DNA from: Flavobacteriales bacterium
GTDB lineage: Bacteria > Bacteroidota > Bacteroidia > Flavobacteriales_D > Sanyastnellaceae
NCBI GenBank assembly: GCA_947442505.1
Contig: CANEVR010000001.1
Span: forward strand, 30,305 to 94,304
Length of the DNA stretch: 64,000 bases
Direction: 5' to 3'
Shown here: positions 3,545-33,020 of the stretch, piece after piece
How the letters are laid out: each line of letters begins with the position of its first letter
How positions within the stretch are numbered: the first letter of the stretch is position 1
The notes under the pieces: generated by a model
What the model was told of the DNA's origin: nothing
Seen by the model: only the letters and a program-made list of their open reading frames with translations
Databases searched by the model: none
Position numbers and translations under genes: made by a program

Positions 3545-3694
3545 ATCTCATCTATTCTTTTTTGTATTTCCCAGCTCCTAAATTTCATAGGTAAAATGCT
3601 CGTTTGAACTTTTGAAGAAGAAAAACTTGATTCCAAATTTTCTTTACACCAAATTTCCACACTTAATTTGGTAATTCTGGCATTTTAAATATGC

Positions 3695-4309
3695 CTAATC
3701 CTTGATTAATCGCAAAGAGTAACCGTTTCCTTTTTCCGATGCTTTGCTTTCAGCTGTTTTACGATCTTCAAACAATCTGAAATCAATAGCCGAGCTCTTG
3801 ACGTAATCTGTCGATGTCCAAAAGTGCATTTGCATTCCACCGCCAAAAAACTCTCCATCTTCAGAGCACATACCAACAGGAGACGCAGCAAATCCGGACT
3901 TATTATCTCCATTGCCATCTTGGGTATTCAAATCATCATCCATAAACTCATCCCAGCCCTTAGTATCCTTTAATGCATGACCACCATTCTCTTCTCCACC
4001 ACATTGTTCTATTAAAACGGAGCATTCTTCGTCGGATGGCACATGCCAACCTTCTGGCGCCAATCCACGGTTGTCATTAACTGCAAACCAGTTGTACAAA
4101 GCCTCTCCGTTCTTCTCAAAGAAATTGTAGCACATCATTGGCTTCTCTTCTTTGACGGCCTTTTTCCACTCCTTTTCATTCTTGGCCAATGGAACTTCAT
4201 CTCCATTTCTGAATTGTACCACAACTACATTTTTTGAGGACCAAACTTGCTTACCAATTTTCACCTCTTCAATGTCCGCATTCGCGTTAATACCACTTTT
4301 TTTACTCAT
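3695..4309 (-). CDS. stand-alone FISUMP-domain protein, 204 aa
   Basis: Motifs VKIGKQVWSSKNVVVVQFRNGD, PMMCYNF, ALYNWFAVNDNRGLAPEGWHVPSDEE and GYSLRLIKD. Paralogous to the C-termini of the 631..1578 and 13858..17100 products. No signal peptide. Confidence 0.8.
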   Translation of the reverse strand: MSKKSGINANADIEEVKIGKQVWSSKNVVVVQFRNGDEVPLAKNEKEWKKAVKEEKPMMCYNFFEKNGEALYNWFAVNDNRGLAPEGWHVPSDEECSVLIEQCGGEENGGHALKDTKGWDEFMDDDLNTQDGNGDNKSGFAASPVGMCSEDGEFFGGGMQMHFWTSTDYVKSSAIDFRLFEDRKTAESKASEKGNGYSLRLIKD

Positions 4310-5194: not shown

Positions 5195-6679
5195 CTATTT
5201 TTTCAACTCCAAACTCAATGTTGGACCATCTGTTTCCATTTCGTATTTCTTGGTCAAGTCTTTGAAATCTTTTTTAGCAAACTTCCATCCATCAATATCG
5301 AAGTTTATTTCACTAATTTCTATATCCTTAAATGCTAAAATCCCTTCCTTTTTAAACTTAACTTCTGTACCCCAGTAACCTCCAATAACAAAAACAAACT
5401 TATTCAAATGAATTGAACCTAATTCCATGAAATCAGCGATTTCATGGCAATCACTCAACTCAAGCTCTTTCAATTTTTTCAAAGGCGCAATTCCCTTCAA
5501 CGAGGAAATTCTCGACTCATACAATTTCAAATAGTCAAGATTCTCTAGAGATCCAAACCCAGACATATCTGACACATTCCCCATTCCTTTCAAGGTTAGT
5601 TTTTTCAATCCCGAAAGTGCGTTCAAACAACTTGGAGTAAATTTCGATTTATATCCTTCCATTCCTAGTCCGTCTTCACCAATTTCTAATGTTTCTAATT
5701 TGGTCAAACATTTCAAGCTTTCATAATTGGCAAAGCCCTTTCCGCCGTTACGCACATTTGAAGAAACTTCTAAATGGCGTAAATCCTGACAAGTCTCTAC
5801 AAATCCCAAATCAATTGTAATGCTATCTTGACTTGAGGTATGTAATTTCAGACTTTGCAAATTGGACGGCATTTCAATTTTGTTTTTTCCTTTAACAGGA
5901 TATCCAACAATATTCAGTTCCAAATCTTTCAAGGATAGCAAATCCTTAAAGAAAACCAGATCATCCTTTGACTCTTCGTCAACAGAGAATATTAAGGACT
6001 CCAATCCCTTTAAATCAGACCAATTGATTTTTGCCTTTGACTCGCAACTACCCATCTCCAACTTTTGAATTCCGATTGGCAAATCCAATCTCGCAAATTT
6101 TGCACTCCAGTTTATTTCAGCGATGGTTGATTGAGATAAATCTAAACTTTTATCAGAAATTGCCGGCGCATTAATTCTAAAATATTTCAATTTGATTTTC
6201 TCTAAATCCTTCAATTCAATTTTAAATTCAGACCAAGTCTCGATTTCAAATCTTTCCAATTTTGGGCAAGCCTCGTACAGATTTTCTGAATTAAAATCAT
6301 CAACCTCTAGAATAACAGACAGTTCGATTATTTCTGCCCCGATAATTTCCATGAATTTCTGAAATTGAGAAAATCTCAAACCTTGTAAATGAACTTTAAC
6401 AATGGGTAATTCAAATTCCCAACTGGATTTATCTTTCAGTAATGCATCTAAATCCTCGAATGAAGTCGCATCATAAATACTTATTGAAACTCCACTATAA
6501 AATCCAGTTTTCGATTCTTCTTCAAAGTTATCAATGTCAATACTGATGAAATCATCTTTGTAATGTTCCTCTCCTTTGGCGTTTTGAACAAGATCAAATG
6601 AAATTGCGTCATATGTCTTAAGTGTAGATACCAATCCTACTGGGCTCCCTTTTTTACTCTTTGCGTTTGCTTTTGCCAT
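5195..6679 (-). CDS. leucine-rich repeat (LRR) protein
   Basis: Repeated LxxLxLxx(N/C)xL units (LQSLKLHTS, LRHLEVSS, LTKLETLEIGE, LKKLTLKG, LENLDYLKLYES, LKKLKELELSDC). I moved the start to ATG 6679 (MAKANAKSKK) because the longest ORF (to 6760) would overlap the upstream gene by 34 nt. No signal peptide. Confidence 0.8.
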   Translation of the reverse strand: MAKANAKSKKGSPVGLVSTLKTYDAISFDLVQNAKGEEHYKDDFISIDIDNFEEESKTGFYSGVSISIYDATSFEDLDALLKDKSSWEFELPIVKVHLQGLRFSQFQKFMEIIGAEIIELSVILEVDDFNSENLYEACPKLERFEIETWSEFKIELKDLEKIKLKYFRINAPAISDKSLDLSQSTIAEINWSAKFARLDLPIGIQKLEMGSCESKAKINWSDLKGLESLIFSVDEESKDDLVFFKDLLSLKDLELNIVGYPVKGKNKIEMPSNLQSLKLHTSSQDSITIDLGFVETCQDLRHLEVSSNVRNGGKGFANYESLKCLTKLETLEIGEDGLGMEGYKSKFTPSCLNALSGLKKLTLKGMGNVSDMSGFGSLENLDYLKLYESRISSLKGIAPLKKLKELELSDCHEIADFMELGSIHLNKFVFVIGGYWGTEVKFKKEGILAFKDIEISEINFDIDGWKFAKKDFKDLTKKYEMETDGPTLSLELKK

Positions 6680-6726
6680 TTCTATTTCTTTTTTGTGTTT
6701 GTATTTTTCTTGCAGATTTATCAATA

Positions 6727-7611
6727 TCAATCTGGAATTGTTTTCAATTGAGTATACCACTCAGGTGCTAATCCCAAATAGTTAACACCAGAGGCCAATG
6801 AATCTCTGAAATCGTATATTAAATCATAAACCTCTTCACTATCCCATTCCTTATCACCATCTTCATTCTTCTTCTTTTTAAGGCCGCTGTCTTTTGCGAG
6901 TTTAACAAAATAAGGAACGTCATCGAAATAATATGGATCTTCCCAATCACTGACAGTCGAATATTCGAAAGAAACCTTTCCTTTAGTGAAAACACAGAAA
7001 GACAACTCCCAAAGATTACGATCGAGATAAACAACTTTAAAATCTGACTTGGAATGTTTCGCTAAATCCTTGAAAAAGTTTTCATTCAAACGTATCGTAT
7101 CTTCAACATCCTGAAATAAATAGTTTATCATTAATTTACCTTCAGACTCATGAAAGTAAAAAAATGAATCATCTTCAGAGGTAATATCTTCAAACGAACG
7201 AATTGAATCTGTCACCATTAAAATCTTTTCTGTAATTGCAATGGTGCAGTACTTTTTGAACAACTTCTTTAAATCTGAAAGATTCAAATTGAGAAGAATT
7301 TCATTTTTATCTTGCTCCCCATTGTCTTCACTTATTGTACTTATACTCGATTTTAACGAGCTTGATTTTGACTTCGGTACCATCTTTAAAAACTCCTTCT
7401 CAGTTAAAATATTCACAGTTCCCAATTTCTTGGCTTTTTCCAATTTACTTCCTGCATCTTCGCCCACTACCAGGTAGTTGAGCTTGGCACTCACACCTGA
7501 AAGGACTTTACCGCCATAGGCTTCTACCAATGCTTCAGCTTCGTTCCTAGTAAATTCAGTTAATGTTCCTGTGAAGAGGAATGTTTTGTCTTGAATCTTC
7601 GATTTACTCAC
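6727..7611 (-). CDS. BRCT domain (LigA-type) fused to an unrecognised ~190-aa C-terminal domain
   Basis: The N-terminal 80 aa are nearly identical to those of the 631..1578 product ([56 protein letters not shown]). The C-terminal half is unrelated to FISUMP. Confidence 0.85.
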
Positions 7612-7767
7612 GCTTTAAAACTATGTAAATTCATAACTTAATTGAATTAAAATCGCATCTAAATATACACCAACAAAAGTAATCTCTCTATTAAGAATAC
7701 AACAAATTGAACATTAAACAAATGTCCAATAAACTAAATGTTCTGAAATTGAATAACCCCTAAAAAA

Positions 7768-8271
7768 TCACCTAATCGTCACCACCTCTGGATAGGGGAT
7801 CAACATCTCACAAACAGAGGCCACTTGATCTTTCATGATCATCGATAAGCCCAAGATCAAAGCCGCACTGATGATGGCTGAGGCTATGTTGTTCTTGCGG
7901 ATCTCTTCCCACTCATTGACATGCGTCAATTGAAACAACACCATTATTCCTCCCGCTATCACCAACATCGAAAACAATATGCCAATGATCAAGAACATCA
8001 TCACATATCCCAAACTGGTGCTGATGGTGGCGAAACTTACTTCCGATTGATTGATGAACCGAATGGCATTCATCCCTGGCCCAACTATGGAGCCCACCAA
8101 CAATGATGTCGATAACAATATCCCCGCCTGAAGCGTCGCAAAAGATGTATTCAACTCCTCCAACTGAAAGGCTTTCTTCAAATAAAAGTTCAATACCTTG
8201 TACACCATAAACAAAGCCACTACCCCCATCATAAAGGCAATACCAGCCTGCATTAAAATCACTGTATTCAT
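7768..8271 (-). CDS. DUF350-like (YjfL-like) integral membrane protein
   Basis: Four predicted TM helices. The second half carries the DUF350-type signature THVNEWEEIRKNNIASAIISAALILG (compare E. coli YjfL, ITPHNEWQLIKNNNTAASLAF). Last gene of a coupled operon, 15 nt after the upstream stop. Confidence 0.7.
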   Translation of the reverse strand: MNTVILMQAGIAFMMGVVALFMVYKVLNFYLKKAFQLEELNTSFATLQAGILLSTSLLVGSIVGPGMNAIRFINQSEVSFATISTSLGYVMMFLIIGILFSMLVIAGGIMVLFQLTHVNEWEEIRKNNIASAIISAALILGLSMIMKDQVASVCEMLIPYPEVVTIR

Positions 8272-8286
8272 TTTTCTTGTTGTTTT

Positions 8287-9771
8287 TTAATATAATACTA
8301 CATTCCAATTGTCCATGTCCGTGTGCTCCGGAGCAATCATTCCAACCCTAAATCCTTTGGCCGTTAACTCCACGCCAAAATGTCTCACCCCATCCACTTT
8401 CTTGTAGTGCGCTGAATTGGCCGGTACCGCCACTCCCATGATGGAATGTCCATACTCCCGACTTACCCAAACACTGCTCTCAATCCCCAATCGCTTCAAC
8501 AATGTATACCCCAACAAACTGCGCGTATCACAGTCGCCTTTCATGTTGTGCACAAACTCATAAGGACTCTGCACCCCTCCAACCACCTCCGGCAAACAGG
8601 GTCTTCCCTCTGAATGGTATTGCGCCACAAATCCTCCCTGTCCACTGGCCTCTTGGCAACTGCCATCGTGCACCAAATAGTAAGGAATCTCCTGTATAAA
8701 CGTCACCACCATCTCTGCTGTCTCCAAGACGTTGAGCGATTTGCTCTTGCGCTGACCGTCAAAATACTGAACCAAACTGTCCACTTTGTGTTGGTCGTGG
8801 TCATAAAAGTCAAAATACAAATCATGCCAGAAAGTAAGCTCATTGCCCACCGGAACATTCACCCAATGGTTGTGCAATTTCTTAGAATCTTCAAATGCTA
8901 AAGTTCCAGTAGTGTATCGGGCTTGAAAATCCCTTGGCTGAAAGTCGCTCCATCGCACCTCATGATCCACCAAGTAATTCCAAGGCTGCGGAGCCATGGT
9001 ATCTTGCTTGGGATCCAATCTTTGGTCTTCCAACTGCACATTTCCTTTCTTCGTCTTCAAAGGATCTTCTTGCCATTTGGATTTCAACCAACCTCCCAAC
9101 GATTGAAACAGTCCAATCAGTAAGCCCAAGATAAACAACCACCGCAATGCTTTGAATAATCCTCCGATACAACCCATTGGAGCCATACATCCCTTTCTCA
9201 TGCAACCTTTGGCATTGGCCAATGGGACGGTTGAACCCTGATTCCCAGCAATTAAATCGGGAACCAACAATGGATTGTCTGTTACCCCAACATTAGCATT
9301 TCCCAATACAGTGGTTGACTGAGGAGTGACTTTGCTGGCCGCTGTCGCAGGTACTATGGTTTTGGGCGGAGTCGGTTTTGGGATCGAGAAAAATACCTCT
9401 CCATATGCCACCCCCTTGGTTGTCCCCAAATGCAACGAACCCATTGAACGCACATTGGTTCTTTCTGCAGATCGCGGTCCTGCCTGCTCGCGAAAAACAA
9501 CGTGCTCAATGGGTTTGGCGTATGACTTCCCATCGGGCATTTCCAAAATCAAATCAACACTGCGAAAACCTTTGGGCTTAATCTTGGGAACATAAATAAA
9601 ATCACCCACCTTTTCTTGCTCAGGTAAACGATCATACACCTGCACAACACTGCTGATCTCCAACCACTCCCACTTCAATTGTGCAAATTGATGACCATGA
9701 CCACCCTGATTCCATTGCTTGGAAAAGGCTCCACGATATTTTCCTTTGAAATGAAAATACTCCTTACTCAT
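8287..9771 (-). CDS. single-pass membrane protein with a C-terminal transglutaminase-like/cysteine-peptidase-like domain
   Basis: N-terminal ~190-aa soluble domain, then a Cys/Gly-rich segment (KGCMRKGCMAPMGCIGG) and a TM helix. The C-terminal domain has a Cys...His arrangement (MKGDCDTRSLLGYTLLKRLGI ... EYGHSIMGV) typical of the transglutaminase-like fold. The start overlaps the upstream stop by 8 nt (ATGAGTAA). Confidence 0.65.
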   Translation of the reverse strand: MSKEYFHFKGKYRGAFSKQWNQGGHGHQFAQLKWEWLEISSVVQVYDRLPEQEKVGDFIYVPKIKPKGFRSVDLILEMPDGKSYAKPIEHVVFREQAGPRSAERTNVRSMGSLHLGTTKGVAYGEVFFSIPKPTPPKTIVPATAASKVTPQSTTVLGNANVGVTDNPLLVPDLIAGNQGSTVPLANAKGCMRKGCMAPMGCIGGLFKALRWLFILGLLIGLFQSLGGWLKSKWQEDPLKTKKGNVQLEDQRLDPKQDTMAPQPWNYLVDHEVRWSDFQPRDFQARYTTGTLAFEDSKKLHNHWVNVPVGNELTFWHDLYFDFYDHDQHKVDSLVQYFDGQRKSKSLNVLETAEMVVTFIQEIPYYLVHDGSCQEASGQGGFVAQYHSEGRPCLPEVVGGVQSPYEFVHNMKGDCDTRSLLGYTLLKRLGIESSVWVSREYGHSIMGVAVPANSAHYKKVDGVRHFGVELTAKGFRVGMIAPEHTDMDNWNVVLY

Positions 9772-11056
9772 TCACCTCAGTGCTTTTGGTTTCTGTTGTC
9801 TCAGTGTTGGTCAATTGAACCTCTACCCTTCTATTCAATGCTCTGCCCTCTACCGTGTCATTGGTCGTTCTTGGCTGACTTTCTCCCTTGCCGACTGCCT
9901 GCACCCGCGCACCATCCACTCCAAAACTCAGCAATACCTTTTTCACCGTCTCGGCACGCGCCTGGGACAAATTCAAATTGGCGGTTGCATCCCCCACATT
10001 ATCTGTATGTCCCACAATGGTGGCCTGCACCTTTGGATGCTCATTCAGATACTCTGCCAGTTGCTGAATGCTGCTGATGGAGTATGGAAGCAAATTGGCA
10101 CTGTTGGTATAGAATTGTACGTTGGGCAATTCAATGGCCTCTGTCTTTGAAATCGTTGTGGTATCCTTAAATTTCTTGATGATGTCTTCTTTGGATTTTT
10201 CATCCACATAAACTGTGTCATGAATCACCCGCGGACCCTGTGTACGTTCCATTTGATCCGAACATCCTTTCAATAAGCTAAACAACAAAAGCAAAAGCGC
10301 CAATAGTCCTAAAATACCACAACCTATTTTTCCGCAGCCACCTTGCAAGCAGCCTCCTCCGACTCCACCGGCACTCAAACATCCACCTGGCCCAGCTCCT
10401 ATGCCGCCAGGAGACAACATCATGCCCAAAGGACCACAACCCCGACGCTGTGATAATCGAGAAACGGAACCCATACAGCCCTTGCGTGATTGAAGCAATG
10501 TATCTCGATCAGCAATCAATTTCAATTGGTCTTCCTTCTCCTTTTCAGACCATTGGGGAATGGCACAATATCCTTGCCCCTGCAACCGGCCATGCCATAA
10601 ACCCTCTTTGTAGGCCAAAAACTCAAACCCTTGGTAGGCATTGCCTGCTGCATTGGGCGCAAACTCCACATAGATTTCCGAAGCCACTTCTTTGGTCGCT
10701 ACCGTTTTTCTTTCCAGCTCTATGGGATGGGATTCTTCCAGCAAAACATGGGGCTCGACTTGGAAAGGAGTATCCTGAGAAACATGACGCAGATGTTGTT
10801 CTTTTTGCCAATCAACCACTGAAGCGGATAAGCGATTGTCCTTGGCCTTAAAATATTCTTCCTTGGAAATTTCAGATTCAACAACCAATCGGAAACGTTG
10901 CTCCAATTGAATGGGCGCATGTTTGTATACACCGCCCATGGTTTGGGCTTTCTCAGCAATGAATTGCGAGAAAAAAACACCTTTGTAATATTTGATTTTA
11001 ACCTCTTCCATCACAATGCCTTGACCCATTGGTTCCAAGAAACGTCGGTTCCCCAT
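9764..11056 (-). CDS. single-pass membrane protein with a C-terminal OmpA-like peptidoglycan-binding domain
   Basis: The C-terminus (NVQFYTNSANLLPYS...LNEHPKVQATIVGHTDNVGDATANLNLSQARAETVKKVL...GESQP...GRALNRRVEVQL) is a canonical OmpA/MotB-type domain. It is preceded by a Gly/Cys-rich stretch and the TM helix ILGLLALLLLLFSLL. The more likely start is ATG 11011 (MEEVKIKYY), which overlaps the upstream TGA by 1 nt (TGATG). Confidence 0.85.
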   Translation of the reverse strand: MGNRRFLEPMGQGIVMEEVKIKYYKGVFFSQFIAEKAQTMGGVYKHAPIQLEQRFRLVVESEISKEEYFKAKDNRLSASVVDWQKEQHLRHVSQDTPFQVEPHVLLEESHPIELERKTVATKEVASEIYVEFAPNAAGNAYQGFEFLAYKEGLWHGRLQGQGYCAIPQWSEKEKEDQLKLIADRDTLLQSRKGCMGSVSRLSQRRGCGPLGMMLSPGGIGAGPGGCLSAGGVGGGCLQGGCGKIGCGILGLLALLLLLFSLLKGCSDQMERTQGPRVIHDTVYVDEKSKEDIIKKFKDTTTISKTEAIELPNVQFYTNSANLLPYSISSIQQLAEYLNEHPKVQATIVGHTDNVGDATANLNLSQARAETVKKVLLSFGVDGARVQAVGKGESQPRTTNDTVEGRALNRRVEVQLTNTETTETKSTEVNE

Positions 11057-11889
11057 TCACGCTGCTTGGTTTGTTTTAATATTGAATTGAAAGGTGCATC
11101 TTCATAGGGACTGAGGTCTTGCAACCTTTTGGAGTAAAAAGGGAAACGTTGGCTCAGCCGCAATTGACTCTCTTCTAAAGTCTCCGCATAATCGATTTGA
11201 ATATCTCGAATGGCTTTTTCAGATGCACGCTGAGCATACACAAAACTTTTGTTGTGTTTGATAACAACCATGAAAAAGAAAGGAAAAGCCACCATGATCA
11301 TCCAAAAACCAATCTCAGCGCGCTTTCCCGCATTTGACCACCATTGACGAAACACATAAAATGGATAATTGGCCTGCAGCAATTCTCTTTTCAAAGCCAC
11401 CGACATGTTGCTCTGTCCACCTTGTTTTTCAGCTGAAGCTTGAAAAACCTCCATTCGCTTCTGGCGATTCATGTCCTGAGAAGATGTGTGATGAAAAGCG
11501 CTGACCAGAGGAAAGGCCATGGAAACGGCAATGCATCCCACAAAAATCCAACGGACACCATTGGCAAAAGTGAACCATGAGCCGAAGGCAAGCACTTTCT
11601 TCCAGCGAGAAGCCTTCACCAAGGATACTTCATTCTTCTTGACCAATGGAAGAGAAATCATGGTAATGATGGCAATGCGCAAAATAGAGAAATGAATAAA
11701 CCCCATTAAAAACGCCATGGACACCACACCCAACCAAGACGCTGTCATCATCCAACCAAAATAACCATTGGACACTATAGACAGAACAATTACCGCCACA
11801 AACGACCATATGGTACAATGGTACATGAATCGTTCATTGCCGGATAACTGCGCAAACAAATCAGGATCTAACCCAATGATTTTCTTCAT
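11011..11889 (-). CDS. polytopic membrane protein, possibly a diverged DUF4407-like protein
   Basis: 292-aa ORF with at least five hydrophobic helices. The N-terminus (LDPDLFAQLSGNERFMYHCTIWSFVAVIVLS) resembles the start of DUF4407 proteins. ATGA overlap with the upstream gene at 11886..11889. Confidence 0.65.
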   Translation of the reverse strand: MKKIIGLDPDLFAQLSGNERFMYHCTIWSFVAVIVLSIVSNGYFGWMMTASWLGVVSMAFLMGFIHFSILRIAIITMISLPLVKKNEVSLVKASRWKKVLAFGSWFTFANGVRWIFVGCIAVSMAFPLVSAFHHTSSQDMNRQKRMEVFQASAEKQGGQSNMSVALKRELLQANYPFYVFRQWWSNAGKRAEIGFWMIMVAFPFFFMVVIKHNKSFVYAQRASEKAIRDIQIDYAETLEESQLRLSQRFPFYSKRLQDLSPYEDAPFNSILKQTKQREWGTDVSWNQWVKAL

Positions 11890-13127
11890 GCCTTGGGCGT
11901 TGTGTTGTCCTCTTGGTAGAAACGTTCAGGGTGATCATTCAACTCTTTGACTTTCTTTTGCGACCACACCCCAATAATCTTCTTGGACAAATCTTCTTGG
12001 GCCTTCAATTTTTCGACTTTTTCTTTTCGGTCATTTTCGACTTCCAAGAAATTGGTCTTTTCAATCAACACCATGCCATTGCGACCTTCAAAAATTTGGT
12101 CCTCTTTCACAATACCATTCTTCACATACATTCTGTAGTTGTAATTTTCAACCATGTAATCGTATGGTCCTTTGTTCATCATCATCTTGAAGAAAATAGG
12201 ACCCATCTCGATGGACAAGAAAATGAGGGTTAGGGCTATACCCAAACCAAAGCCGATTTCATGTGCAATTTCGATGCGCTCCAATAAACCATCCAGATTC
12301 TCTGCGTTCTTTTTATTATCAACGTTCAATTCCTTTTCTTGATCCGCCAACTTCTGATCCCGTTGTTTTTTAAGACCACTCAATTCTGCAGCATGCTTTT
12401 GATCATAGGCTTGAACATCTTTGATTTTCTCATTCTTAAAAACCTCTAGCTGCTTGGCTCTAGGACCGTAACCTGCCTCACCTGCTCTTCCTTGCATTTG
12501 ATCCAAATATTCCTGCTCTGCATCTTTTTGACGTTGAACCAGCACGTTGCGATCGTCCTCCAATTTCTTGATGTCCTTATCGATCAGGATAATTTGCTCT
12601 TTGAACTTGGCATAGGTATTCTTGTTGAACTCGTCCAATTTCTCTTGTTGCTTTTTACGCAACTCCACATTGATTTCGGTCTCGATGATTTTCAATTCCA
12701 GTGGTTTGGAAATCGTAATACCCAGAATCAAGGCAATGATCAAACGAGGAACGGCTTGACCAAATTCTTTTAGTGTGATGCTATCCGTTCCATCCCCTTT
12801 ACCGGTGCTGGAGACGATGAAGCGATCGAGATTAAAAATCAATGCGCCCCAGCACAAACCAAAAACGGCCGAACCAATCATCCACCCTGTTGAAGAGACA
12901 TCATCCCCGGCCATGCCTTTGGGACCAAAAGCGGTATTGAAAGCGAAACCTCCCGCAAAGGTGGCCAATAGACCGGTAGAAAAAACAATGCCGCCAATTC
13001 CTGCATATTTGACGCGGTCTTGGGCCGGAGAGCGCATCAGGAAAAACTGATCGGCACCTGCGCACCACCACAAAAAACGGGTGATGAAATTGACTTTTTG
13101 TGTGGGATATTCTTGTTGATTAATCAT
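11886..13127 (-). CDS. DUF4407 family membrane protein with a central coiled coil
   Basis: Motifs FLWWCAGADQFFLMRSPAQDRVKYAGIGGIVFSTGLLA, NLDRFIV and PRLIIALILGITISKPLEL, followed by a ~150-aa Lys/Glu/Gln-rich coiled coil and another TM helix. I chose the start at ATG 13127 (MINQQEY) because it forms an ATGA overlap with the upstream ORF stop (13124..13127). The longest ORF reaches 13211. Confidence 0.8.
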   Translation of the reverse strand: MINQQEYPTQKVNFITRFLWWCAGADQFFLMRSPAQDRVKYAGIGGIVFSTGLLATFAGGFAFNTAFGPKGMAGDDVSSTGWMIGSAVFGLCWGALIFNLDRFIVSSTGKGDGTDSITLKEFGQAVPRLIIALILGITISKPLELKIIETEINVELRKKQQEKLDEFNKNTYAKFKEQIILIDKDIKKLEDDRNVLVQRQKDAEQEYLDQMQGRAGEAGYGPRAKQLEVFKNEKIKDVQAYDQKHAAELSGLKKQRDQKLADQEKELNVDNKKNAENLDGLLERIEIAHEIGFGLGIALTLIFLSIEMGPIFFKMMMNKGPYDYMVENYNYRMYVKNGIVKEDQIFEGRNGMVLIEKTNFLEVENDRKEKVEKLKAQEDLSKKIIGVWSQKKVKELNDHPERFYQEDNTTPKA

Positions 13128-13726
13128 ATGGTTTGAATAAATTGACGAATAAAAATTTCTGGATTTACATTTTCCTCTAGGGCCTGTTCGCTCAATTCTC
13201 CCACTGGCCAATCACATGCCACAGAAGGGGGACTGGCTATATCGTTCAATTGACACTGAGGCAAAACCCAATCGGTAGATGGCGTAACAACATGACAAGG
13301 GGGAATAGTTTCGGGAGTCGCAATTGGGGCCGTTCTGCAAGACACATCAAGGAACTGAGGTTCATGTTCAGCCATCGACCAATCCGACGGCAACACTTCC
13401 AAATGTTGCACCTCCCAACGCACCACTTTTCTTTTGGGAAAAGAAATGAGAAAAGGAAAGAAGAACAAGGTGGCTCTGGGAGAATTAAAATTGGCCAGGT
13501 TCTGAAATTGGTCGTTGCCTTTTTTGACAAACCACCTTTTAAATCGATATCCTCTTCCTGGTCTTTTGTACCAGGGCTTAGACTGCCCATTGCGATAGTA
13601 GACCAACACCCACCGAGCATCAGAGGTCCATGACAAAGTAAAAAGTTTGTCGTGAAAGCAATGCGAAGGGGCATCGATCTGTCTCATCATGAACTCAAAT
13701 AAACAAAATTCGATGAAAAAAGACAA
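13124..13726 (-). CDS. hypothetical protein (up to 200 aa), first gene of the coupled operon
   Basis: The ORF's TGA overlaps the ATG of the DUF4407 gene (ATGA), which supports this frame over the alternative ORF 13246..13674. The start may be the MMRQ methionines at ~13690. No recognised domain. Confidence 0.5.
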   Translation of the reverse strand: MSFFIEFCLFEFMMRQIDAPSHCFHDKLFTLSWTSDARWVLVYYRNGQSKPWYKRPGRGYRFKRWFVKKGNDQFQNLANFNSPRATLFFFPFLISFPKRKVVRWEVQHLEVLPSDWSMAEHEPQFLDVSCRTAPIATPETIPPCHVVTPSTDWVLPQCQLNDIASPPSVACDWPVGELSEQALEENVNPEIFIRQFIQTI

Positions 13727-13857
13727 CTTAAGTTATAAACAAAAAAAATAGCGAGGAGAAAATTAAAGATCCCTATTCGACAGTATTTGATCTTACAACT
13801 CAACCGATCCAGATAAATCAACATTTGCAGCACAACGATTCCTTCCAGAATTTTAAT

Positions 13858-16800
13858 TTACTCCTTGATGCATAAAACTGGGAAACCCATTCCCCTGGGG
13901 TAAGATTCCCGTATCATTTTATCCGTCCTCATTTCATATGCATATCCATTTAAACGACCTTCAGAAGAAGTCCACCAAGCGTGATTGGGCGAAATACTAA
14001 AAGTACCCGTTTCTTTTCTTCTAGATCCAAGATTCCAACCCTTTGAAGCCGCTAATTTTTCTTTAGCCACTTCTTCATCTCCAAAGAATGTGATAAGATT
14101 TGACCAGTCCTGAGCATCCGCTATTCGCCATCCATGTGGAGCCAATCCACGCTCGTCATTAACCGCATACCAATTGTATAACCTTCCTTCTTCTTTGCCA
14201 ATAGACTCATCATTCTTGTAGTAACACCATGCAGGTTGTCCTTCTTCGTTTGCCTTGACCCAATCCGATTTGTCTTTGGCATGAGGTATCAGGTCTCCAT
14301 TTCTAAAAACCGCATTATCTAAATTATCTTGAGCCCAAAAGACATCAGTCTGACCTTTCATTTTTTTCCCTAAAGGAATTTTAACGGTAGCCATGTTTTC
14401 CGGCTCCATGTCCAACTGACTCGGCGCTTTGCCTTTTGTGATTTTCTTCTTTTCGACCTCATTCACACTCTCCTTTGTGGGAACAGGCGGCTGGATATCT
14501 AATGAAATATTGGGGACATTTGGTCGATTAGCAATATTATTTAACTCACCATGTTGACTTTCTGAACCCGAGTTGGATTTTGGTGTCTCACTTTTTTTCA
14601 ATGGAGTCTCGCTTGCCTTAAGAATTTCCTTATTGAATTTAATGGTGTAGTGCTGAAAAACTTTAGGAACATTTGGAAGAGGGTTCCAAATCCTGAAGGA
14701 GGGCTCTTCAGTCCATTTATAATTGGATTTATAAAATGGTACCTTAAGTTCCCTTGAATTTAGTTTGCCTCCAGCTGAGCGTATTGTCGTGTTAATTTTA
14801 ACATCTTCTCTCTCCATATAATCCTTTATATCTCGTTTGGATTGCTTTAACTTGCTGTCCACCCAGTTTATTAAAACCTTCACATCTTCAGGACATTCAT
14901 CTTCAAGGTCTAGGGAAAGCTTAAATAAATCCTCATAAAATTCATTTACTCTGCCCAAAGCACCTTTTGCCATAGCGATATTATAACGTGCAATCAAAAC
15001 ATAATTTCTGAAATATTTTACTTTTTCCCAAAATTCAATTGCCAGAGGAAAATCCTCTGAATAAAAAGAAATCGCACCAAATAAAAAATTATGACGATCT
15101 TTATCCCAAATAATATTGGATTCTTCAAATAAAATTCTGTTAAACCTTTTGGTTTCGATAATCTTTTCCTCAATCCCATCAATTTCCCTTGAGATGACAT
15201 GTAGTAATAAAATATCTTCCAAATAAAAAATCTCATTCAAATGAGACAATAAAAAAATCTCTTGATTTTTAGATTGATGATCTACAATTCCCTTTTTGAA
15301 CTTATCCCTTCTCCCATTGAAATAAGCATACTCCTCACGAATACTGGACCGATAATCCCAAATCATATTTTCCGAATCACCTGAGCCCAACTTTTTCATC
15401 TTTAGAAAAATTAAATTCCGCCTTATAACTATTGCCTTAAAATCAGAAATTTCATCCATTAATATCAATGAGTTTATCCAATTCTCTTCGTTGTAATTAA
15501 GATGAACCCCTACAATTTCTGCAAACTCCACATTCTTCATTTCACCTATAATTTGAGTCAAACCAAACACATTTGAATTCTTATTCAATTGCGTTGAAAT
15601 CGTAGTAATAAAAAACTTGATTCGTCTAATTCCAACATTTTCAATTAGTAGTTCTTTAAACCTTAGCTTGAGAATATTCAAAGAATAATATGCAAATAAT
15701 ATTACCAAGAAGATTACGGACCCAATTGCAAAATAAATATCAAGCAGCAAAAAAACTCCCACAGAAACACTAAGAAAAGCTGAAAATGAAAGAAGCATCC
15801 TTAACTTTCTTTCCAAGTTGAATCTATTTATATCAAATAATTTTAACAGTTGCCAACCAATACCAAAATCTGGTGCCAAATAAAAATACTGTGGTAGAAA
15901 ACTAATAACCATCCTAAAAAACAAATTGTATTGCACCTTATCTTTTCTTTTCACAGCATCATGAAATAAAAAAACAATCGATTCGTAAACGACACCCACC
16001 AATATTTTAGCCTCTTCATTTGATAGAACCGAAAAATCGGAATTGCGCAATTCAATGATTCTGTTGTGAAAGAAAATGAGAGATTCACGATCCGATACAT
16101 TCTTCAGTTTAGCGCTTAACCCAGACCCAAAATCATAATCTGAAATTTGTTCATCTTTTTCAATTTGCAATTCTTTTTCTAATTTCCTTGCTACCAGCAT
16201 CTCCTCATACCACTGTTGAATACCAACTTTCTCATCTTCCATCATTTCTTCCAAAGCAGCAGTTTTACTTTTGAGGTAATTCAAATAAATGGGGTTGGCC
16301 ATTTTTTTCCAATCTTCATAAGGAAATCCTGATAAATCAGTAATATTATCAACCTCAATTGTCTGAGATTCCGAACTCAAATAATTTTGAAATACGCCTT
16401 TGTCTCCATTCCGTTGATTCCAAAATACCAAAGAGTAATTGAGTCCCATGTCATCCTCACTTCTGATTCCTAAGACAAATGGCATCAGGCATAATTCGCT
16501 ACCGTCCAAAGACCATTCTTCATTGTTATAGACTGAATCAGGTTTAATGACAATAAAGTGTTGATTTAAATTGGACAGACCTTTTGTATTGATAATTCTC
16601 GCAGCGCTTATCTCATTCGCGTCAGCCACAATCAAGCTTGTTTTCTTGTAAAACGGAGAATTAAGGATAATTTCAAAACAAGTTTTAATCTCTGAGATAT
16701 GATCCTTGTTCAATACAATGGAAGCATGTGCATCTTGATTACGAATCTTAATCAATTTTTGCAAATACTCCTGGGTTTGATCATAATTTTTAGCAAAATC

Positions 16801-17100
16801 AGTCCATAAAGAGTTTTCTTCCTGTGATTTCAGTATGATCCTATTGACCATAGTCGACATGGCATTACAAAAGCCCAATGACGGTGGCTTTTGATACATT
16901 TGAACCAATTGAACCCTCAGGTTCATAGGAATCTCACTTTTCAGCTCCTTTAGCAACCATCCAGTATGAAAAGCAGCATTGAACTTAACACAAGCCTCCA
17001 GTAAACCTTTAAACATATTTTTTTGTACATCTATACTTTTTGACCTTCGTAACTCTTGGAAAGCAGCATGGAAAGGATACTCTATTCTGATTTTACTCAT
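13858..17100 (-). CDS. 1080-aa protein: N-terminal HEPN-like module, central TM hairpin, helical region, C-terminal FISUMP domain
   Basis: The N-terminal module is paralogous to those of the two STAND genes (PPSLGFC ... IKIRNQDAHAS, with R120-x4-H125 at nt 16726..16743). Two adjacent TM helices lie near aa 435-480 (LLSFSAFLSVSVGVFLLLDIYFAIGSVIFLVILFAYY). The C-terminus has FWAQDNLDNAVFRNGD, PAWCYYKND, GRLYNWYAVNDERGLAPHGWRIADAQDW and GFPVLCIKE. No P-loop seen. Confidence 0.85.
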   Translation of the reverse strand: MSKIRIEYPFHAAFQELRRSKSIDVQKNMFKGLLEACVKFNAAFHTGWLLKELKSEIPMNLRVQLVQMYQKPPSLGFCNAMSTMVNRIILKSQEENSLWTDFAKNYDQTQEYLQKLIKIRNQDAHASIVLNKDHISEIKTCFEIILNSPFYKKTSLIVADANEISAARIINTKGLSNLNQHFIVIKPDSVYNNEEWSLDGSELCLMPFVLGIRSEDDMGLNYSLVFWNQRNGDKGVFQNYLSSESQTIEVDNITDLSGFPYEDWKKMANPIYLNYLKSKTAALEEMMEDEKVGIQQWYEEMLVARKLEKELQIEKDEQISDYDFGSGLSAKLKNVSDRESLIFFHNRIIELRNSDFSVLSNEEAKILVGVVYESIVFLFHDAVKRKDKVQYNLFFRMVISFLPQYFYLAPDFGIGWQLLKLFDINRFNLERKLRMLLSFSAFLSVSVGVFLLLDIYFAIGSVIFLVILFAYYSLNILKLRFKELLIENVGIRRIKFFITTISTQLNKNSNVFGLTQIIGEMKNVEFAEIVGVHLNYNEENWINSLILMDEISDFKAIVIRRNLIFLKMKKLGSGDSENMIWDYRSSIREEYAYFNGRRDKFKKGIVDHQSKNQEIFLLSHLNEIFYLEDILLLHVISREIDGIEEKIIETKRFNRILFEESNIIWDKDRHNFLFGAISFYSEDFPLAIEFWEKVKYFRNYVLIARYNIAMAKGALGRVNEFYEDLFKLSLDLEDECPEDVKVLINWVDSKLKQSKRDIKDYMEREDVKINTTIRSAGGKLNSRELKVPFYKSNYKWTEEPSFRIWNPLPNVPKVFQHYTIKFNKEILKASETPLKKSETPKSNSGSESQHGELNNIANRPNVPNISLDIQPPVPTKESVNEVEKKKITKGKAPSQLDMEPENMATVKIPLGKKMKGQTDVFWAQDNLDNAVFRNGDLIPHAKDKSDWVKANEEGQPAWCYYKNDESIGKEEGRLYNWYAVNDERGLAPHGWRIADAQDWSNLITFFGDEEVAKEKLAASKGWNLGSRRKETGTFSISPNHAWWTSSEGRLNGYAYEMRTDKMIRESYPRGMGFPVLCIKE

Positions 17101-17181: not shown

Positions 17182-20100
17182 ATGAGTTTCAAATGCACCA
17201 ACATTGAATGTACTGCACCGGAGAATAAAAAGGGCAGAGAATACCCTTCGGCCATGGAATGTCCATTTTGTGATGTTCCTTTGGTTGAATTTTCAAGTTT
17301 TAATGAGGTTGATTTACAACTTATCAATACACTCCCCTACATCATCGCCTATCCCCTTAAAAGAACGCTGGAAGAAAAACATCCCTGGACGAAAATCAAT
17401 TTGTTCAAGGATACGTTTTTGAATTACCTAAAATATCTGGGATTGCTGACTGCATCCGAATTCTTCAACAGCCCCTTCAAAGACAAACGCATGGTGGCCT
17501 TGTTTCAGCAATCATTGTCAGAGCCTTCCTTTGGAACATGGAACCAATACATTAGAGAAACTTTGGCATTCTTGAAAGAAAAAGAACACTCCTTCTTTAT
17601 TCCTGAATTGGCGGAGCACTATGAAAAAGTGGAGACAGGTAAGAAAAGAAAATTGTACAAAGGCGAAATTGAATTTATCGATGGCAATGGAGATGTCCAA
17701 ATCAAAAAACAAGAAGCTACCGCAATTGGAATGCTTATCAATTTCAGAAACCGTTATTTGGGACATGGATTGACTTTGGACGCAGACACGGCTGAAAAAC
17801 TGTGGGCAGAATATTCTCCTATGTTTTTTGAAATTCTCAGAGAGCTGAAGTTCACGCTAGATTATAAGATGTACAAGTATGAAAATGATGAGACGTTTCT
17901 CTTGCAATCTGCCCAAATCGTTCAAAAAGAAAACAACAGAAAAAGCAATCAAGTTTGGTTGGAAAGTCCTACGGGTGAGGTGATGGATATACTTCCCTTT
18001 TACGTCGTTCCGGGAGAGTTAACGATCCGAAAAGAAGATAAGGAGCAAATATTGGCTTATGAATCCTACACAGGGAAGTCCATCAAGTTCTTTAGTCCGG
18101 AAGGTACTGAGAAGCAAACCTCAGGAAGAATTCTCGAAAAACTGAATTTGCTTTTGCGCGACAAGCAGAAAGAAAAAGCCTATTCACCCGAAGAATTTAC
18201 CAAGGAAATTTTTCTTTCCCGAGTTGCCGAGGAGAACAAACTCATTCTCGATACGCTCATTGCAGAGAAGAAAGTCATTCCGGGAGTTTATGTCCACCGT
18301 GAAGACATGGAGATCAAACTCCGCGAATGGATTGGTGCTCGAGCAAACATTTTCGTTATTGCTTCAGAAGCTGGTAGCGGAAAAACCAATTTGTTGGTGG
18401 AAATACAGAAGCAATACGCGGAGCGTGAATTGCCGACATTACTCATTCGAGCCGGCCGAATGGAGAAAACAACCATTCATGCACAGTTGTGCTACCTGTT
18501 GAATATTGATGAACATTGTAATCTAAACCAATACCCTGCCATTGCCGGGACGCAAGAGGCACCCACCTTTGTCCTGATCGATGGACTAAACGAGGCACTC
18601 GAATCGGAAAAACTTTGGACCGAACTATTTGAAATCTCCAAACACTTTGAACCCGGTAGTTTGAAGTTTGTGATTACAAGTCGGGCGAACTCCAAGGTAG
18701 GTTTAAATCGTTATACATTCGATGCGAACGACAAGCATTTTATTTATGGTAAAAATAACCAGCGCGAAAATGACCTAGGCGACTATGCACACTGGCTAAC
18801 AACTCTCAATATGGCAGAAATAAAATCTGCCTGGGAAAACTATTCGCAAAATGAAAGAAACAAATACAAACCCTTATTCTTATTTGATGATCTTGCTGCA
18901 TTTGATCGCGCATTATACAACCAAATTAGTAACCCTTTAATATTGAGACTATTTCTAGAAACCTATCACAATAAATCTCTTCCGAAGAAAGGTAACAAAC
19001 AACTAAATATATGGGCTGACTGGCTTGCAAACTTTTCTGAGGATGAAATTATTTTTTTAAAGTATCTGTCTCAGGCCGTTTGGGATAAAGGAGTAAACGA
19101 ATTATTATTAGATGATTTACTTAGCAAAGCGAATCTTAAGCCATACTTAACCACCGATATTATAAACGCTCCATATCATCGCCTTAAAAACATTGGTTGG
19201 ATAACACGATTTACTAAAGAATTGAATGTTTATTTATCTTTTACAGTTGAAGGGGCACTGCTCTATATTATGGGGGCAATCTTGAAGGAACAACAATTAT
19301 ATACGGATATTGAAATCATTAAAAACACTCTCAAAAAAGGATCGAAAATTCAACAATCTGCTATTGAAGTTTTGTTAAGTCAACTTTCACTATTGAATGA
19401 CCTCAAAATTCCGCGTATTCTTACTGATGCAGGTCAAGAATATCAATACGCTTGTGTCAATCCTTTGATTTTGTATATACGAAATTATGGAGTGAAATCT
19501 TTTGTAGACTTTTTTTTCACTCCGTCAAACGTTAACTACTGGTATTCGGCTCTATTATTATCTAATACATTATCTGATCTAGAGGAAAAATTGTTGAGAA
19601 AGGAGTTTTTAATTCAATTAATGCCTTTAAATACTTTTGTTTCCAGACCCGAAATTGAGATAGGAATTAAAACTTGTGATTTGTTGGATTGGGAGCAAGC
19701 CCATAATTACGTAAGTATTATTGATAAAAATTGCAACTCAAATGATTTATCTACTGTCAAAGTTGAACTTGATTCGTTTTTATTGGTTGAGTTAGGTCAT
19801 CTTGAATTACATTATGGCAACTATGATCAAGCATTAAACTACTACAAAAAATCTCTTGAAATAGATGAAAATAAATTTGGCAAAAATATAGATATAGGTA
19901 CAACCTACTATTTTATTGGAACGGCCTATAGCGCAAAAAGCGAGTATATAAAAGCAATTGAATATTTCGAAAAAGCAATTAATACTTATCGAATTTTTCT
20001 AGACGAAAATCATATTTTCTTTTTTCGAATTTATAATGACCTTGGATTACTATTAGGCTCAATACAACAAAATAATAAGGCTCTATTAACACTCGAAAAA

Positions 20101-21348: not shown

Positions 21349-21367
21349 TATAATTGTAAAAAAAATT

Positions 21368-21931
21368 ATGAGAGCAAAAACATACAAAAGCACAAACGGT
21401 TTTACCTCACCGCAATCACTTTCCGATTTTGGAATTGAAGTTTCTAATGGAAAAGAAACAAAATACTTAGGTTTAGAGGAATTTAATTTTTGCTCAATCC
21501 TAAAATCATATTCCTTCAATGGAAAGCATATCGCTTTTATTCCTTGTTTCAGCATCAATAGAGGAGCTGCTATTATTGAAGAATTAGACCTTTTCTTTCA
21601 TGATGGCCAAGGTGTTACCTTACACTACGCTACTCTTCACGGAGTTACTCAAATTCAAGCTCCGGAAATCCCAGCGATACGTAAAGATTTAATTGCTGTG
21701 GGTCTTCCAGAATTCGTTCATAACTCTATTGAATTTCAACATAATTACGGCCCATTGTTCAATCCTGCGATTAAAATTTGGAAAAAGTGTTTTGACACCA
21801 ATATTATCACTGCCAAAAGAACCGATGATAGGTTTGTTGTCAATACCTTTTATGAGAAAGTGGTTTTACATAATCCAAAAAGAAAAGTTAATTGGACTAA
21901 CTTAAAACGTGCAAGACAACTTCATCCATGA
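21368..21931 (+). CDS. hypothetical protein, 187 aa, downstream partner of the STAND-TPR gene
   Basis: The ORF starts 19 nt after the STAND-TPR stop on the same strand. No recognised motif. Confidence 0.6.
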   Translation: MRAKTYKSTNGFTSPQSLSDFGIEVSNGKETKYLGLEEFNFCSILKSYSFNGKHIAFIPCFSINRGAAIIEELDLFFHDGQGVTLHYATLHGVTQIQAPEIPAIRKDLIAVGLPEFVHNSIEFQHNYGPLFNPAIKIWKKCFDTNIITAKRTDDRFVVNTFYEKVVLHNPKRKVNWTNLKRARQLHP

Positions 21932-21960
21932 ATTCATAGTCCTAGTAACATTAGAGTTCT

Positions 21961-22695: not shown

Positions 22696-22706
22696 AATTT
22701 CTATTC

Positions 22707-32224: not shown

Positions 32225-32286
32225 AGTCGAATATTAGCGACATCGCAGTAAACTTTTATATTTATAGAAAACTAAAACTCAAAACA

Positions 32287-32943: not shown

Positions 32944-33020
32944 AGAAATAATAGATATCCAAATTTGTTTTTAGTGAGCTTTCTCTCTTGGGATTAAAAG
33001 CATCCTTATTTTCTCAACAA

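Follow-up and report, generated by a model that had tools for sequence, protein, structure and literature searches.

A compact six-gene envelope module of undescribed function, conserved among Bacteroidota

Introduction

Can six tightly packed genes that match no described system be recognised as a functional unit in their own right, and what might such a unit do at the cell envelope? This question is raised by a block of six minus-strand open reading frames (ORFs), named here G1 to G6, which occupies approximately 6 kb (positions 7768-13690) of a 64,000-nt stretch of contig CANEVR010000001.1 (assembly GCA_947442505.1, positions 30,305-94,304, forward strand) from a Flavobacteriales bacterium of the Sanyastnellaceae. 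This whole stretch is referred to as the window, and all six ORFs are present in it. We report that the six-gene set is a real, strongly conserved, compact and undescribed envelope module. Our tentative reading is that it forms an inner-membrane assembly, anchored to peptidoglycan, whose periplasmic cysteine enzyme is controlled from the cytoplasm.

Three of the six proteins belong to no family, and a fourth, the DUF4407 protein, belongs to one without a known role. Solving the module would give a first indication of what DUF350/YjfL and DUF4407 do, and could reveal a new coupling of the cytoplasm to peptidoglycan chemistry, be it in repair, remodelling or defence. With six genes in 6 kb, the block is a clean and compact target for heterologous tests in tractable Bacteroidota.

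Results

Gene organisation and conservation of the block

Read on the reverse strand, the genes are joined by ATGA at the G1/G2 and G2/G3 junctions, by TGATG at G3/G4 and by ATGAGTAA at G4/G5, and a 15-nt gap separates G5 from G6 (coordinates in Table 1). A first-pass annotation of this DNA had described six chained minus-strand genes forming a translationally coupled unit; every junction that it quoted was present in the sequence, confirming the overlapping or abutting arrangement. Two start sites allow alternatives. A TTG at 13726 is open and would extend G1 to 200 aa, and both lengths of G1 occur in database gene calls. For G4, public gene calls start at 11056 (430 aa), but we favour 11011 because homologue alignments begin approximately 7 residues before a conserved YYKG. 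By hydrophobicity analysis, G4 and G5 each have one predicted transmembrane (TM) segment, G2 has three to four, and G3 and G6 have approximately four each. An Rfam scan of window positions 7300-14200 gave no match, no tRNA was found in the window, and the exact motif TAnnTTTG was not found upstream of G1. Counts of sigma-70 promoters and terminators were not above those of shuffled sequences in a scan whose coverage does not extend to Bacteroidota promoters.

When genomes representing 185,579 species, one for each, were scanned for sequence patterns, 92 relatives were recovered, of which 80 loci were kept; ORFs were called in these and searched iteratively with the six window proteins. All 80 loci came from metagenome-assembled genomes (MAGs) of Bacteroidota, with recognisable sample names referring to lakes, rivers and ponds, and the scan, which used exact peptide patterns, may understate this Bacteroidota-only range. 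Submitter labels included Flavobacteriales, Chitinophagaceae, Catalimonadaceae, Hymenobacteraceae, Aquirufa and Arcticibacter, some of the species-level labels being clearly rough. A check proposed with the first-pass annotation was whether the six genes occur together outside this genome. They do: 41 of the 80 loci carried all six genes in order, and in a further 29, which a contig end interrupts, all genes still visible were in the expected order. One gene was undetected in four loci, and six held only a short G5 together with G6. Median intergene gaps ranged from -4 to +4 nt at every junction across the loci. In three homologue loci (35-46% identity) the same six-gene layout was found in unrelated chromosomal contexts. 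Such recurrence is far beyond chance, and together these data show that the six overlapping genes, all in one orientation, are inherited as a single unit.

Within this unit, G6 followed the C-terminal domain (C-domain) of G5 in 73 loci, including short variants without G1-G4, and the short G5 variants inspected were approximately 345 aa long and had no head, the N-terminal region described below. Even in distant homologues that contain the C-domain only, a DUF350 gene lay immediately downstream. The core of the module, in every locus with checkable downstream sequence, is thus the G5 C-domain followed by DUF350. Median identities to the window proteins, computed over 43 complete loci, were highest for the TM part of G2 (68%), for G6 (60%), for the OmpA domain of G4 (54%) and for the G5 C-domain (52%). 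They were far lower for the heads of G4 and G5 (both 25%), for G3 (21%) and for G1 (18%), the fastest-evolving protein of the set. Searches of IMG/VR viral contigs and GenBank phages gave no relative of G5, and a search of PLSDB plasmids gave none of G2.

Family assignments

Three of the six proteins passed Pfam thresholds, bearing out the corresponding calls made from the sequence: G2 matched DUF4407 (PF14362; E = 3e-61, 207.7 bits against a cut-off of 31.3, model positions 3-294 of 297), G4 matched OmpA (PF00691; E = 1.6e-20, 73.7 bits against 27.2), and G6 matched DUF350 (PF03994; E = 2.5e-9, 37.7 bits against 26), source annotations for G6 reading 'YjfL (UPF0719 family)'. G1, G3 and G5 had no match in Pfam, NCBIfam or PADLOC and no credible match in PHROGs, where the sole signal from the six proteins was a weak one for G1 (E = 0.089). 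With PADLOC v2, the six proteins gave only ZorB/MotB-type matches on the OmpA region of G4, and the defining proteins of no defence system were detected; NCBIfam matches on G4 were likewise restricted to the OmpA region. Sequence-profile searches of the PDB with full-length G5, its C-domain, G1 and G2 returned nothing or low-complexity and coiled-coil noise only (no match for the C-domain profile), and a profile search with the G4 head returned only five fragments, uninformative as to other architectures. In the literature excerpts available, DUF4407 (PF14362) is only tabulated, with no function given, and this gene set is not described; we found no paper combining YjfL with a transglutaminase (TGase). 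As first proposed, the block is without a described function, since no PADLOC, PHROG, Rfam, PDB or literature match explains it.

The C-terminal domain of G5 resembles a cysteine enzyme

In an alignment of 27 diverse homologues of the G5 C-domain, Cys414 (in GDCDTRS), His442 (in YGHS) and Glu468 (in ELT) were invariant. Two further pairs, H368-x3-C372 and H386-x5-C392, were also invariant and suggest a metal site or a disulfide. The fold was predicted in two AlphaFold2 models, one of full-length G5 (predicted local distance difference test score, pLDDT, 71) and one of the C-domain alone (pLDDT 74; predicted template modelling score, pTM, 0.69). A predicted helix (413-427) is followed by strands 432-437, 442-447, 456-459 and 462-467, which places Cys414 at the helix N-terminus, His442 at the opening of a strand two strands on and Glu468 after a further strand. 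At the level of sequence and predicted topology, the domain thus shows a candidate Cys-His-Asp/Glu triad arranged as in the transglutaminase-like superfamily.

Database matches were weaker. Window G5 had no Pfam match at E<=0.1 and hence no significant match to PF01841 or its relatives. When the 27 homologues were searched at E<=10, Transglut_core was the most frequent Pfam family (4/27, best E = 0.021) and DUF553 occurred once (1/27, E = 0.23), all of these matches being sub-threshold. The top Foldseek matches of the full-length model were the TGase-fold structures 3kd4 (E = 0.075) and 1g0d (E = 0.33), and those of the C-domain model were the PNGase 2f4o (E = 0.22) and 3kd4 (E = 0.33), with template modelling scores of at most 0.26 for both models. 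No match at E<=0.001 was obtained with the two G5 models against the PDB or against BFVD, the latter, viral search being uninformative. The initial designation of this domain as 'transglutaminase-like' therefore did not pass formal thresholds in Pfam or Foldseek (E>=0.075), yet it is made plausible by the invariant Cys, His and Glu and by the predicted topology. Judged from the models and the alignment, the G5 C-domain is likely, though unproven, to be a papain/TGase-fold cysteine enzyme.

The family is large. G5 homologues numbered 424 at the 90%-cluster level, all labelled "hypothetical", and a full hidden Markov model (HMM) search with the C-domain family yielded 976 clusters at 50% identity, of which 440 reached E<=1e-30. 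Among 137 new representative sequences, 51 had a head, a TM segment and the C-domain, and 85 had one or more TM segments and the C-domain. One metagenomic fusion ORF, P0278 (722 aa), combines DUF4407 (residues 5-286), extra TM segments and a G5 C-domain (residues 490-717), which hints at a direct functional link between DUF4407 and the C-domain.

Related heads, interface cysteines and topology of G4 and G5

G4 consists of a predicted cytoplasmic head, a conserved G-C..G-C..G-C-G motif, one TM segment and an OmpA-like peptidoglycan-binding domain, whose family consensus keeps the OmpA motifs GHTD..G....N..LS..RA and NRRVEV. In G5, an all-beta head with the invariant G200-C201 precedes a single TM segment and the C-domain. 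Both proteins are thus bitopic with a Cys/Gly motif ahead of the TM segment, as the first-pass annotation had described them, and with heads that are predicted to be cytoplasmic. BLASTP detected no similarity between G4 and G5, nor between G2 and G3, and these relationships became visible only by profile-profile comparison. With hhalign, the G4 and G5 heads aligned over 128 columns, nearly the whole of both (E = 2.5e-4, probability 43%), while all of the remaining 20 domain pairs fell below 1% probability. Common to both heads are an N-terminal (Y/H)(Y/F)KG strand and a C-terminal HG-x-I-x-G / EG-x-I-Y-F-S motif, and conserved Gly-Cys repeats lie directly before the TM segment in both proteins. 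The two heads are probably homologous. A relationship of G1 to them was rejected (hhalign probability 0.1%).

The OmpA domain of G4 binds peptidoglycan and must be periplasmic, which would place the G4 head in the cytoplasm. By an argument that we regard as weak, the G5 C-domain would be periplasmic, given a cytoplasmic N-terminus; G5 shares the layout of G4, and its C-domain bears additional invariant Cys and His residues. Window G5 has one hydrophobic segment before the C-domain, the short forms inspected have approximately three, and 589-aa forms carry an extra hydrophobic insert.

Conserved cysteines were found at the predicted membrane interfaces of G2, G4, G5 and G6 (Table 1) and suggest a shared metal site or lipidation. 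In the L086 assembly, which carries an identical G5, G4 was called as 348 aa without the OmpA domain and with a 240-nt gap before G5; this shortened G4 is a frameshift or an assembly variant.

G1 and the DUF4407 pair G2/G3

G1 has a conserved beta-rich N-terminal domain of approximately 115 aa (HGQxFTL ... PKKxxIPL), a variable Pro-rich tail and no TM segment. Iterative HMM searches placed it upstream of G2 in 51 related loci. G2 comprises three N-terminal hydrophobic segments, a 141-aa insert, a fourth TM segment and a C-terminal domain of approximately 100 aa. The insert is bounded by a hydrophobic segment on each side, is rich in charged residues (59/141) and contains a central invariant G-x-G-P; it is likely to be a hairpin coiled coil, which agrees with the coiled coil of approximately 150 aa first noted in the DUF4407 protein. 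Insert lengths in homologues fell into two discrete classes of 141-142 and 153-156 aa. The distribution of Lys and Arg in G2 favours an inside N-terminus, an outside insert and an inside C-terminus, in which case the 141- or 153-aa insert would be a periplasmic helical hairpin of approximately 9-10 nm. Invariant charged residues (D101, R102, R128 and E307) lie in or at the TM segments. G2 was unusually conserved, with up to 77-93% identity across distant carriers.

An iterated G3 profile recruited G2 proteins, and the G2 and G3 families aligned with hhalign over the N-terminal TM region (probability 95.8%, E = 7.7e-9). By this comparison, G3, which had been called only a second polytopic membrane protein, is indeed polytopic and can be refined to a divergent DUF4407 paralogue that lacks the long coiled coil.

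A stand-alone DUF4407 homologue of G2 is also encoded by Lak megaphages (Prevotella phage Lak-B2, MK250021.1; MK250015-MK250029). It shares 31-33% identity with G2 over 81-86% of G2 (E ~1e-27), and it forms a single 418-aa ORF only when TAG is read as a sense codon (table 15). The other five genes of the block, G1 and G3-G6, have no counterpart near the Lak gene.

Genomic context

The block is flanked in the window by genes for BRCT, leucine-rich repeat (LRR) and Fib_succ_major proteins (Table 1). Upstream, an AT-rich stretch (17182-28154) encodes a 1388-aa TPR-STAND protein with a weak Avs2 match, a 244-aa mREase-like protein and an 1815-aa NACHT protein. GC content was 0.450 for the block, 0.433 for window positions 38-64 kb and 0.352-0.356 for both flanks. 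In locus L009, the same 1080-aa Fib_succ_major gene lies upstream of G1 (74% identity) and is followed directly by homologues of window 32200-34058; L009 lacks the intervening stretch, and the window therefore carries approximately 15 kb extra, including both STAND genes. In locus L006, homologues of window 39929-41596 and 45839-47089 lie directly beside the block. The GC values and these two layouts suggest that the block has been in this lineage for longer and that it is the AT-rich STAND genes that were inserted.

The earlier description of the block as compositionally foreign to its neighbours is thereby inverted: its GC content is near that of the 38-64 kb region, it is the flanks that are low in GC, and in L009 and L006 the STAND genes are missing beside the block. 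As to the proposed setting in a defence island, STAND, mREase-like and NACHT genes do lie near the block in the window, and locus L008 has a TPR-STAND homologue close to it, but in other genomes most of the immediate neighbours cannot be recognised as defence genes.

The 1080-aa gene occupies the same position in L009 and does not do so in L006, L008 or more distant loci. The BRCT and LRR pair follows the block also in the L086 assembly, and not in other species. These three genes were rejected as members of the block since they are not conserved with it beyond close relatives. Among 150 immediate neighbours of the block in other genomes, the commonest families were 4HBT thioesterases (14), CorA-like proteins (6) and DUF6150 (4). 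The remaining neighbours were scattered and included a few defence matches (HEPN_STY4199, IetA, PDC-S01/05/23 and dGTPase). By HMM search, a 4HBT gene was detected 2-3 nt after G6 in 14 loci and in 22 fetched loci overall, and is absent from the window. The CorA-like protein (two TM segments, ~444-470 aa; PADLOC CorA, E down to 6.6e-16) was present in 13 fetched loci and lay no more than ~1 kb from the block in 11 of these. Its gene varies in position and orientation, also occurs beside a short G5-G6 dyad, is absent from the window, and recurs together with a gene for a protein of ~167 aa with no assigned family. Short G5-G6 dyads in Flavobacterium-type loci lie beside genes for PorP/SprF, for an OmpA/PD40/TPR protein and for an ORF of ~2,970 aa, with a DUF2130 gene downstream on the opposite strand.

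Table 1. Features of the block and of related loci. Positions refer to the window unless a locus is named.
Feature	Position	Strand	Description
G1	13124-13690	minus	188 aa from ATG; small soluble protein; first gene of the block
G2	11886-13127	minus	413 aa; DUF4407 membrane protein
G2 insert, likely coiled coil	12267-12689	minus	residues 147-287
G2 Cys22	~13062-13064		predicted interface Cys, in WWCAGAD
G3	11011-11889	minus	292 aa; polytopic membrane protein
G4	9764-11011	minus	415 aa; bitopic, OmpA-like C-terminus
G4 head	10487-11011	minus	~175 aa
G4 G-C repeats			predicted interface Cys, residues 176-250
G4 TM segment	10271-10327	minus
G4 OmpA-like domain	9830-10114	minus
G5	8287-9771	minus	494 aa; bitopic, C-domain resembling a cysteine enzyme
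G5 head	9352-9771	minus
G5 Cys201			predicted interface Cys
G5 TM helix	9073-9174	minus
G5 C-domain	8290-9039	minus	~250 aa
G5 Cys414	8530-8532	minus	candidate catalytic residue
G5 His442	8446-8448	minus	candidate catalytic residue
G5 Glu468	8368-8370	minus	candidate catalytic residue
G6	7768-8271	minus	167 aa; DUF350 (YjfL-type) 4-TM membrane protein
G6 Cys153			predicted interface Cys, in CE..PYP at the C-terminus
Fib_succ_major protein	13858-17100	minus	1080 aa; C-terminal Fib_succ_major domain; directly upstream of G1
BRCT protein	6727-7611	minus	downstream of G6; 34-nt overlap with LRR gene
LRR protein	5195-6760	minus	34-nt overlap with BRCT gene
Two further Fib_succ_major/Lcl_C proteins	1640-4309
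4HBT thioesterase (examples)	L034 12042-12590; L069 11287-11829
CorA-like protein (examples)	L036 12175-14054; L070 11760-13094
CorA-like protein (example)	L001 12208-13620	minus
Short G5-G6 dyad loci	L062 8318-9232; L083 1995-3938; L069 1-8915
Fusion ORF P0278	L088 1152-3320		DUF4407 and G5 C-domain
Lak-B2 DUF4407 homologue	L091 7977-9233		stand-alone
Shortened G4	L086 2802-4087		called without OmpA domain

Discussion

A possible peptidoglycan-anchored module with a periplasmic enzyme

With rather less than even confidence, we read the block as a peptidoglycan-anchored inner-membrane module in which a periplasmic cysteine enzyme is under cytoplasmic control. The DUF4407 pair G2/G3, with its invariant charged residues in or at the TM segments, would serve as membrane scaffold or transducer, and G4 would pin the assembly to peptidoglycan via its OmpA domain. 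G5 and G6 would form the catalytic output, the G5 C-domain being an active papain/TGase-fold cysteine enzyme that cleaves or transamidates a periplasmic, peptidoglycan-associated substrate. The fast-evolving cytoplasmic parts, i.e. G1 and the two heads, may set its activity by a form of inside-out control comparable to that of LapD over LapG. Every mechanistic step beyond gene order, domain content and conservation is one that we infer from sequence. The placement of the 4HBT gene recalls ybgC, which heads the tol-pal cluster. DUF350 is recurrently tied to PspA and polyamine operons (10.1101/2020.09.24.301986). Because of the 4HBT association, this link of DUF350, the very high conservation of G2 and the backbone-like GC content, we lean towards an accessory role in envelope remodelling or stress rather than in dedicated phage defence.

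Several points weigh against this reading. The TGase-fold assignment never reaches significance in Pfam, Foldseek or PDB sequence searches, and the homology of the G4 and G5 heads is modest at 43% probability. The membrane topology is derived from hydrophobicity and the positive-inside rule only; a crude TM scan of the wider G5 family often gave two or four segments, and with such mixed counts the TM number leaves the side of the C-domain unfixed. The P0278 fusion was seen only once, on a contig of 3.5 kb, and every carrier recovered is a MAG. Finally, the patchy distribution, the fast cytoplasmic parts, the STAND neighbours and the CorA-like neighbour would fit a conflict system about equally well, and overall the evidence separates our reading and its rivals poorly.

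Alternative readings

The alternative that survives best, although we consider it unlikely, is a system that acts on the envelope in anti-phage defence or abortive infection. Infection would be sensed either by the cytoplasmic heads and G1 or by the peptidoglycan-bound periplasmic parts and signalled through the DUF4407 pair; the periplasmic enzyme would then lyse the cell or block entry by cutting or cross-linking peptidoglycan or the tethers of the outer membrane. The likeness to Zorya would be one of logic only. Such a system would be consistent with the patchy occurrence of the block (92/185,579 species, from several Bacteroidota orders), with its different chromosomal contexts and with cytoplasmic parts that evolve fast next to conserved output parts. 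The neighbourhood speaks in both directions. In the window, the block lies among the TPR-STAND (weak Avs2 match), mREase-like and NACHT genes, a TPR-STAND gene is also near it in L008, the CorA-like protein recurs beside it in 13 loci, and the few defence-related neighbours (HEPN_STY4199, IetA, PDC-S01/05/23, dGTPase) can be added. However, most of the 150 neighbours are not recognisable defence genes, the STAND genes are not beside the block in L009 and L006, and its GC content matches that of the presumed backbone. The gene content likewise argues against defence, as no PADLOC model was matched except via the generic OmpA domain, and the block contains no nuclease, NADase or other classical effector. 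Relatives were not found on viral contigs or in phages (G5) or on plasmids (G2), and G2 is unusually conserved in distant carriers. More doubtful still is the stronger proposal that the block represents a new class of envelope-acting immune or suicide machine, with the fast-evolving G4 and G5 heads and G1 as cytoplasmic sensors of infection or damage, DUF4407 transducers and a peptidoglycan-tethered periplasmic effector that acts with DUF350 and would cut the wall or cross-link it. If true, this would be inside-out signalling with an extracytoplasmic effector and with no homologous core in common with Zorya or other described systems.

Covalent envelope modification appears improbable. The G5 C-domain would then be an acyl or amine transferase (TGase/NAT/LRAT-type chemistry) by which peptidoglycan or envelope proteins are decorated with polyamines, acyl groups or proteins, with DUF350 as its membrane partner or conduit and the optional 4HBT enzyme editing thioester intermediates. 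Other DUF350 operons repeatedly include polyamine enzymes that form amides, a GspS-like ATP-grasp ligase and spermidine-synthase-like proteins (10.1101/2020.09.24.301986). In the present family, DUF350 is always paired with the putative Cys-His-acid enzyme, the 4HBT gene directly follows G6 in 14 loci, and conserved cysteines recur at the membrane interface in G2, G4, G5 and G6. This argument is purely associative, however: the window block has no polyamine or lipid gene, the window lacks 4HBT, and the chemistry of the G5 C-domain is not readable from its sequence.

We regard as very improbable a surface-protein or adhesin switch of the LapD/LapG type, in which the tethered periplasmic protease would release or mature a surface protein on a cytoplasmic signal. 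In its favour, the bacterial protease LapG, TGase-like with a Cys-His-Asp triad, works in the periplasm and is controlled from inside the cell, and short G5-G6 dyads lie beside PorP/SprF, an OmpA/PD40/TPR protein and a ~2,970-aa ORF. Against it, the six-gene block has no substrate gene that is conserved with it, Pfam and NCBIfam searches detected no GGDEF, EAL or PilZ-type domain, and the PorP/SprF neighbourhood occurs only in a few Flavobacterium-type loci and may be incidental.

Comparison with known systems

Our preferred reading of a peptidoglycan-anchored module with a periplasmic enzyme invites comparison with several envelope systems. Like Tol-Pal (ybgC-tolQ-tolR-tolA-tolB-pal-cpoB), the block is an envelope-spanning operon with polytopic inner-membrane proteins, a long-helical protein and an OmpA-type peptidoglycan binder, and a 4HBT gene is co-transcribed in 14-22 related loci as ybgC is with tol-pal. 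However, the TolQ (MotA_ExbB), TolR (ExbD), TolA and TolB families were not detected in any of the six proteins with Pfam or NCBIfam, so that the block does not belong to Tol-Pal. Where Tol-Pal has an outer-membrane lipoprotein as its peptidoglycan binder, G4 is predicted to be bitopic in the inner membrane and to have a large head in the cytoplasm. The block also adds the TGase-like enzyme and DUF350, is a patchy accessory rather than universal, and in the window stands without 4HBT.

The pairing of a long-coiled-coil membrane protein with a single-TM protein ending in an OmpA-like domain recalls ZorA/ZorB of Zorya and MotA/MotB, and the first-pass annotation had drawn this analogy. It failed for each diagnostic feature tested. 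G4 matched PADLOC ZorB models with E = 2.8e-11, a match resting mainly on the generic OmpA region, and neither G2 nor G3 matched ZorA or MotA models (PADLOC and Pfam; only DUF4407 was found). The conserved MotB-type aspartate is missing, with no column of the G4 TM segment (residues 233-247) having D or E as a common residue. The Zorya effectors ZorC/D, ZorE and ZorF/G had no PADLOC match in G1, G3, G5, G6 or adjacent genes. Moreover, MotB and ZorB do not have the ~175-aa cytoplasmic head of G4, and the predicted coiled coil of G2 lies between TM segments, not in a C-terminal tail.

An equally early suggestion was a link to the E. coli yjfIJKLMC (PspA-YjfL) operon, with which only the 4-TM DUF350 protein is shared. 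In PspA-YjfL operons, DUF350 likewise occurs together with an enzyme that forms or cleaves amide bonds and with an intracellular protein rich in beta structure (10.1101/2020.09.24.301986). None of PspA, DUF2170, DUF2491, DUF1190, ATP-grasp, DUF4178, CesT/Tir-like or spermidine-synthase-like families was detected in the six proteins with Pfam or NCBIfam. The enzyme here is, in contrast, a predicted periplasm-facing Cys-His-Glu domain, and DUF4407 and OmpA components are added.

For G4, the long form of TssL/DotU offers a similar layout, namely a ~180-aa cytoplasmic head, one TM segment and an OmpA-like domain in the periplasm. Matches of G4 to the TssL-long and DotU models of NCBIfam covered only its OmpA part, with 78 bits against a cut-off of 140 and 60 against 520, respectively. 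The head of DotU is helical, whereas that of G4 appears related to the all-beta head of G5. An identity of G4 with TssL/DotU was rejected, as the matches are confined to the OmpA region and far below the cut-offs and the block contains no other gene of a type VI secretion system.

LapD/LapG and TgpA share with G5 a periplasmic Cys-His-acid domain of the papain/TGase fold at the inner membrane, a likeness that for G5 is partly predicted. TgpA is membrane-anchored, like G5, and LapG is controlled from the cytoplasm across the membrane. G5 differs in having no significant sequence or structure match to Transglut_core or other transglutaminase-like models, in the third candidate catalytic residue, which is Glu and not Asp, and in its partners, which are DUF350, DUF4407 and OmpA with no cyclic di-GMP module. 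The resemblances of the block to known systems are thus ones of logic only: a helical-arm membrane protein that is joined by an anchor to peptidoglycan, a TGase-like enzyme in the periplasm, and control exerted from the cytoplasm.

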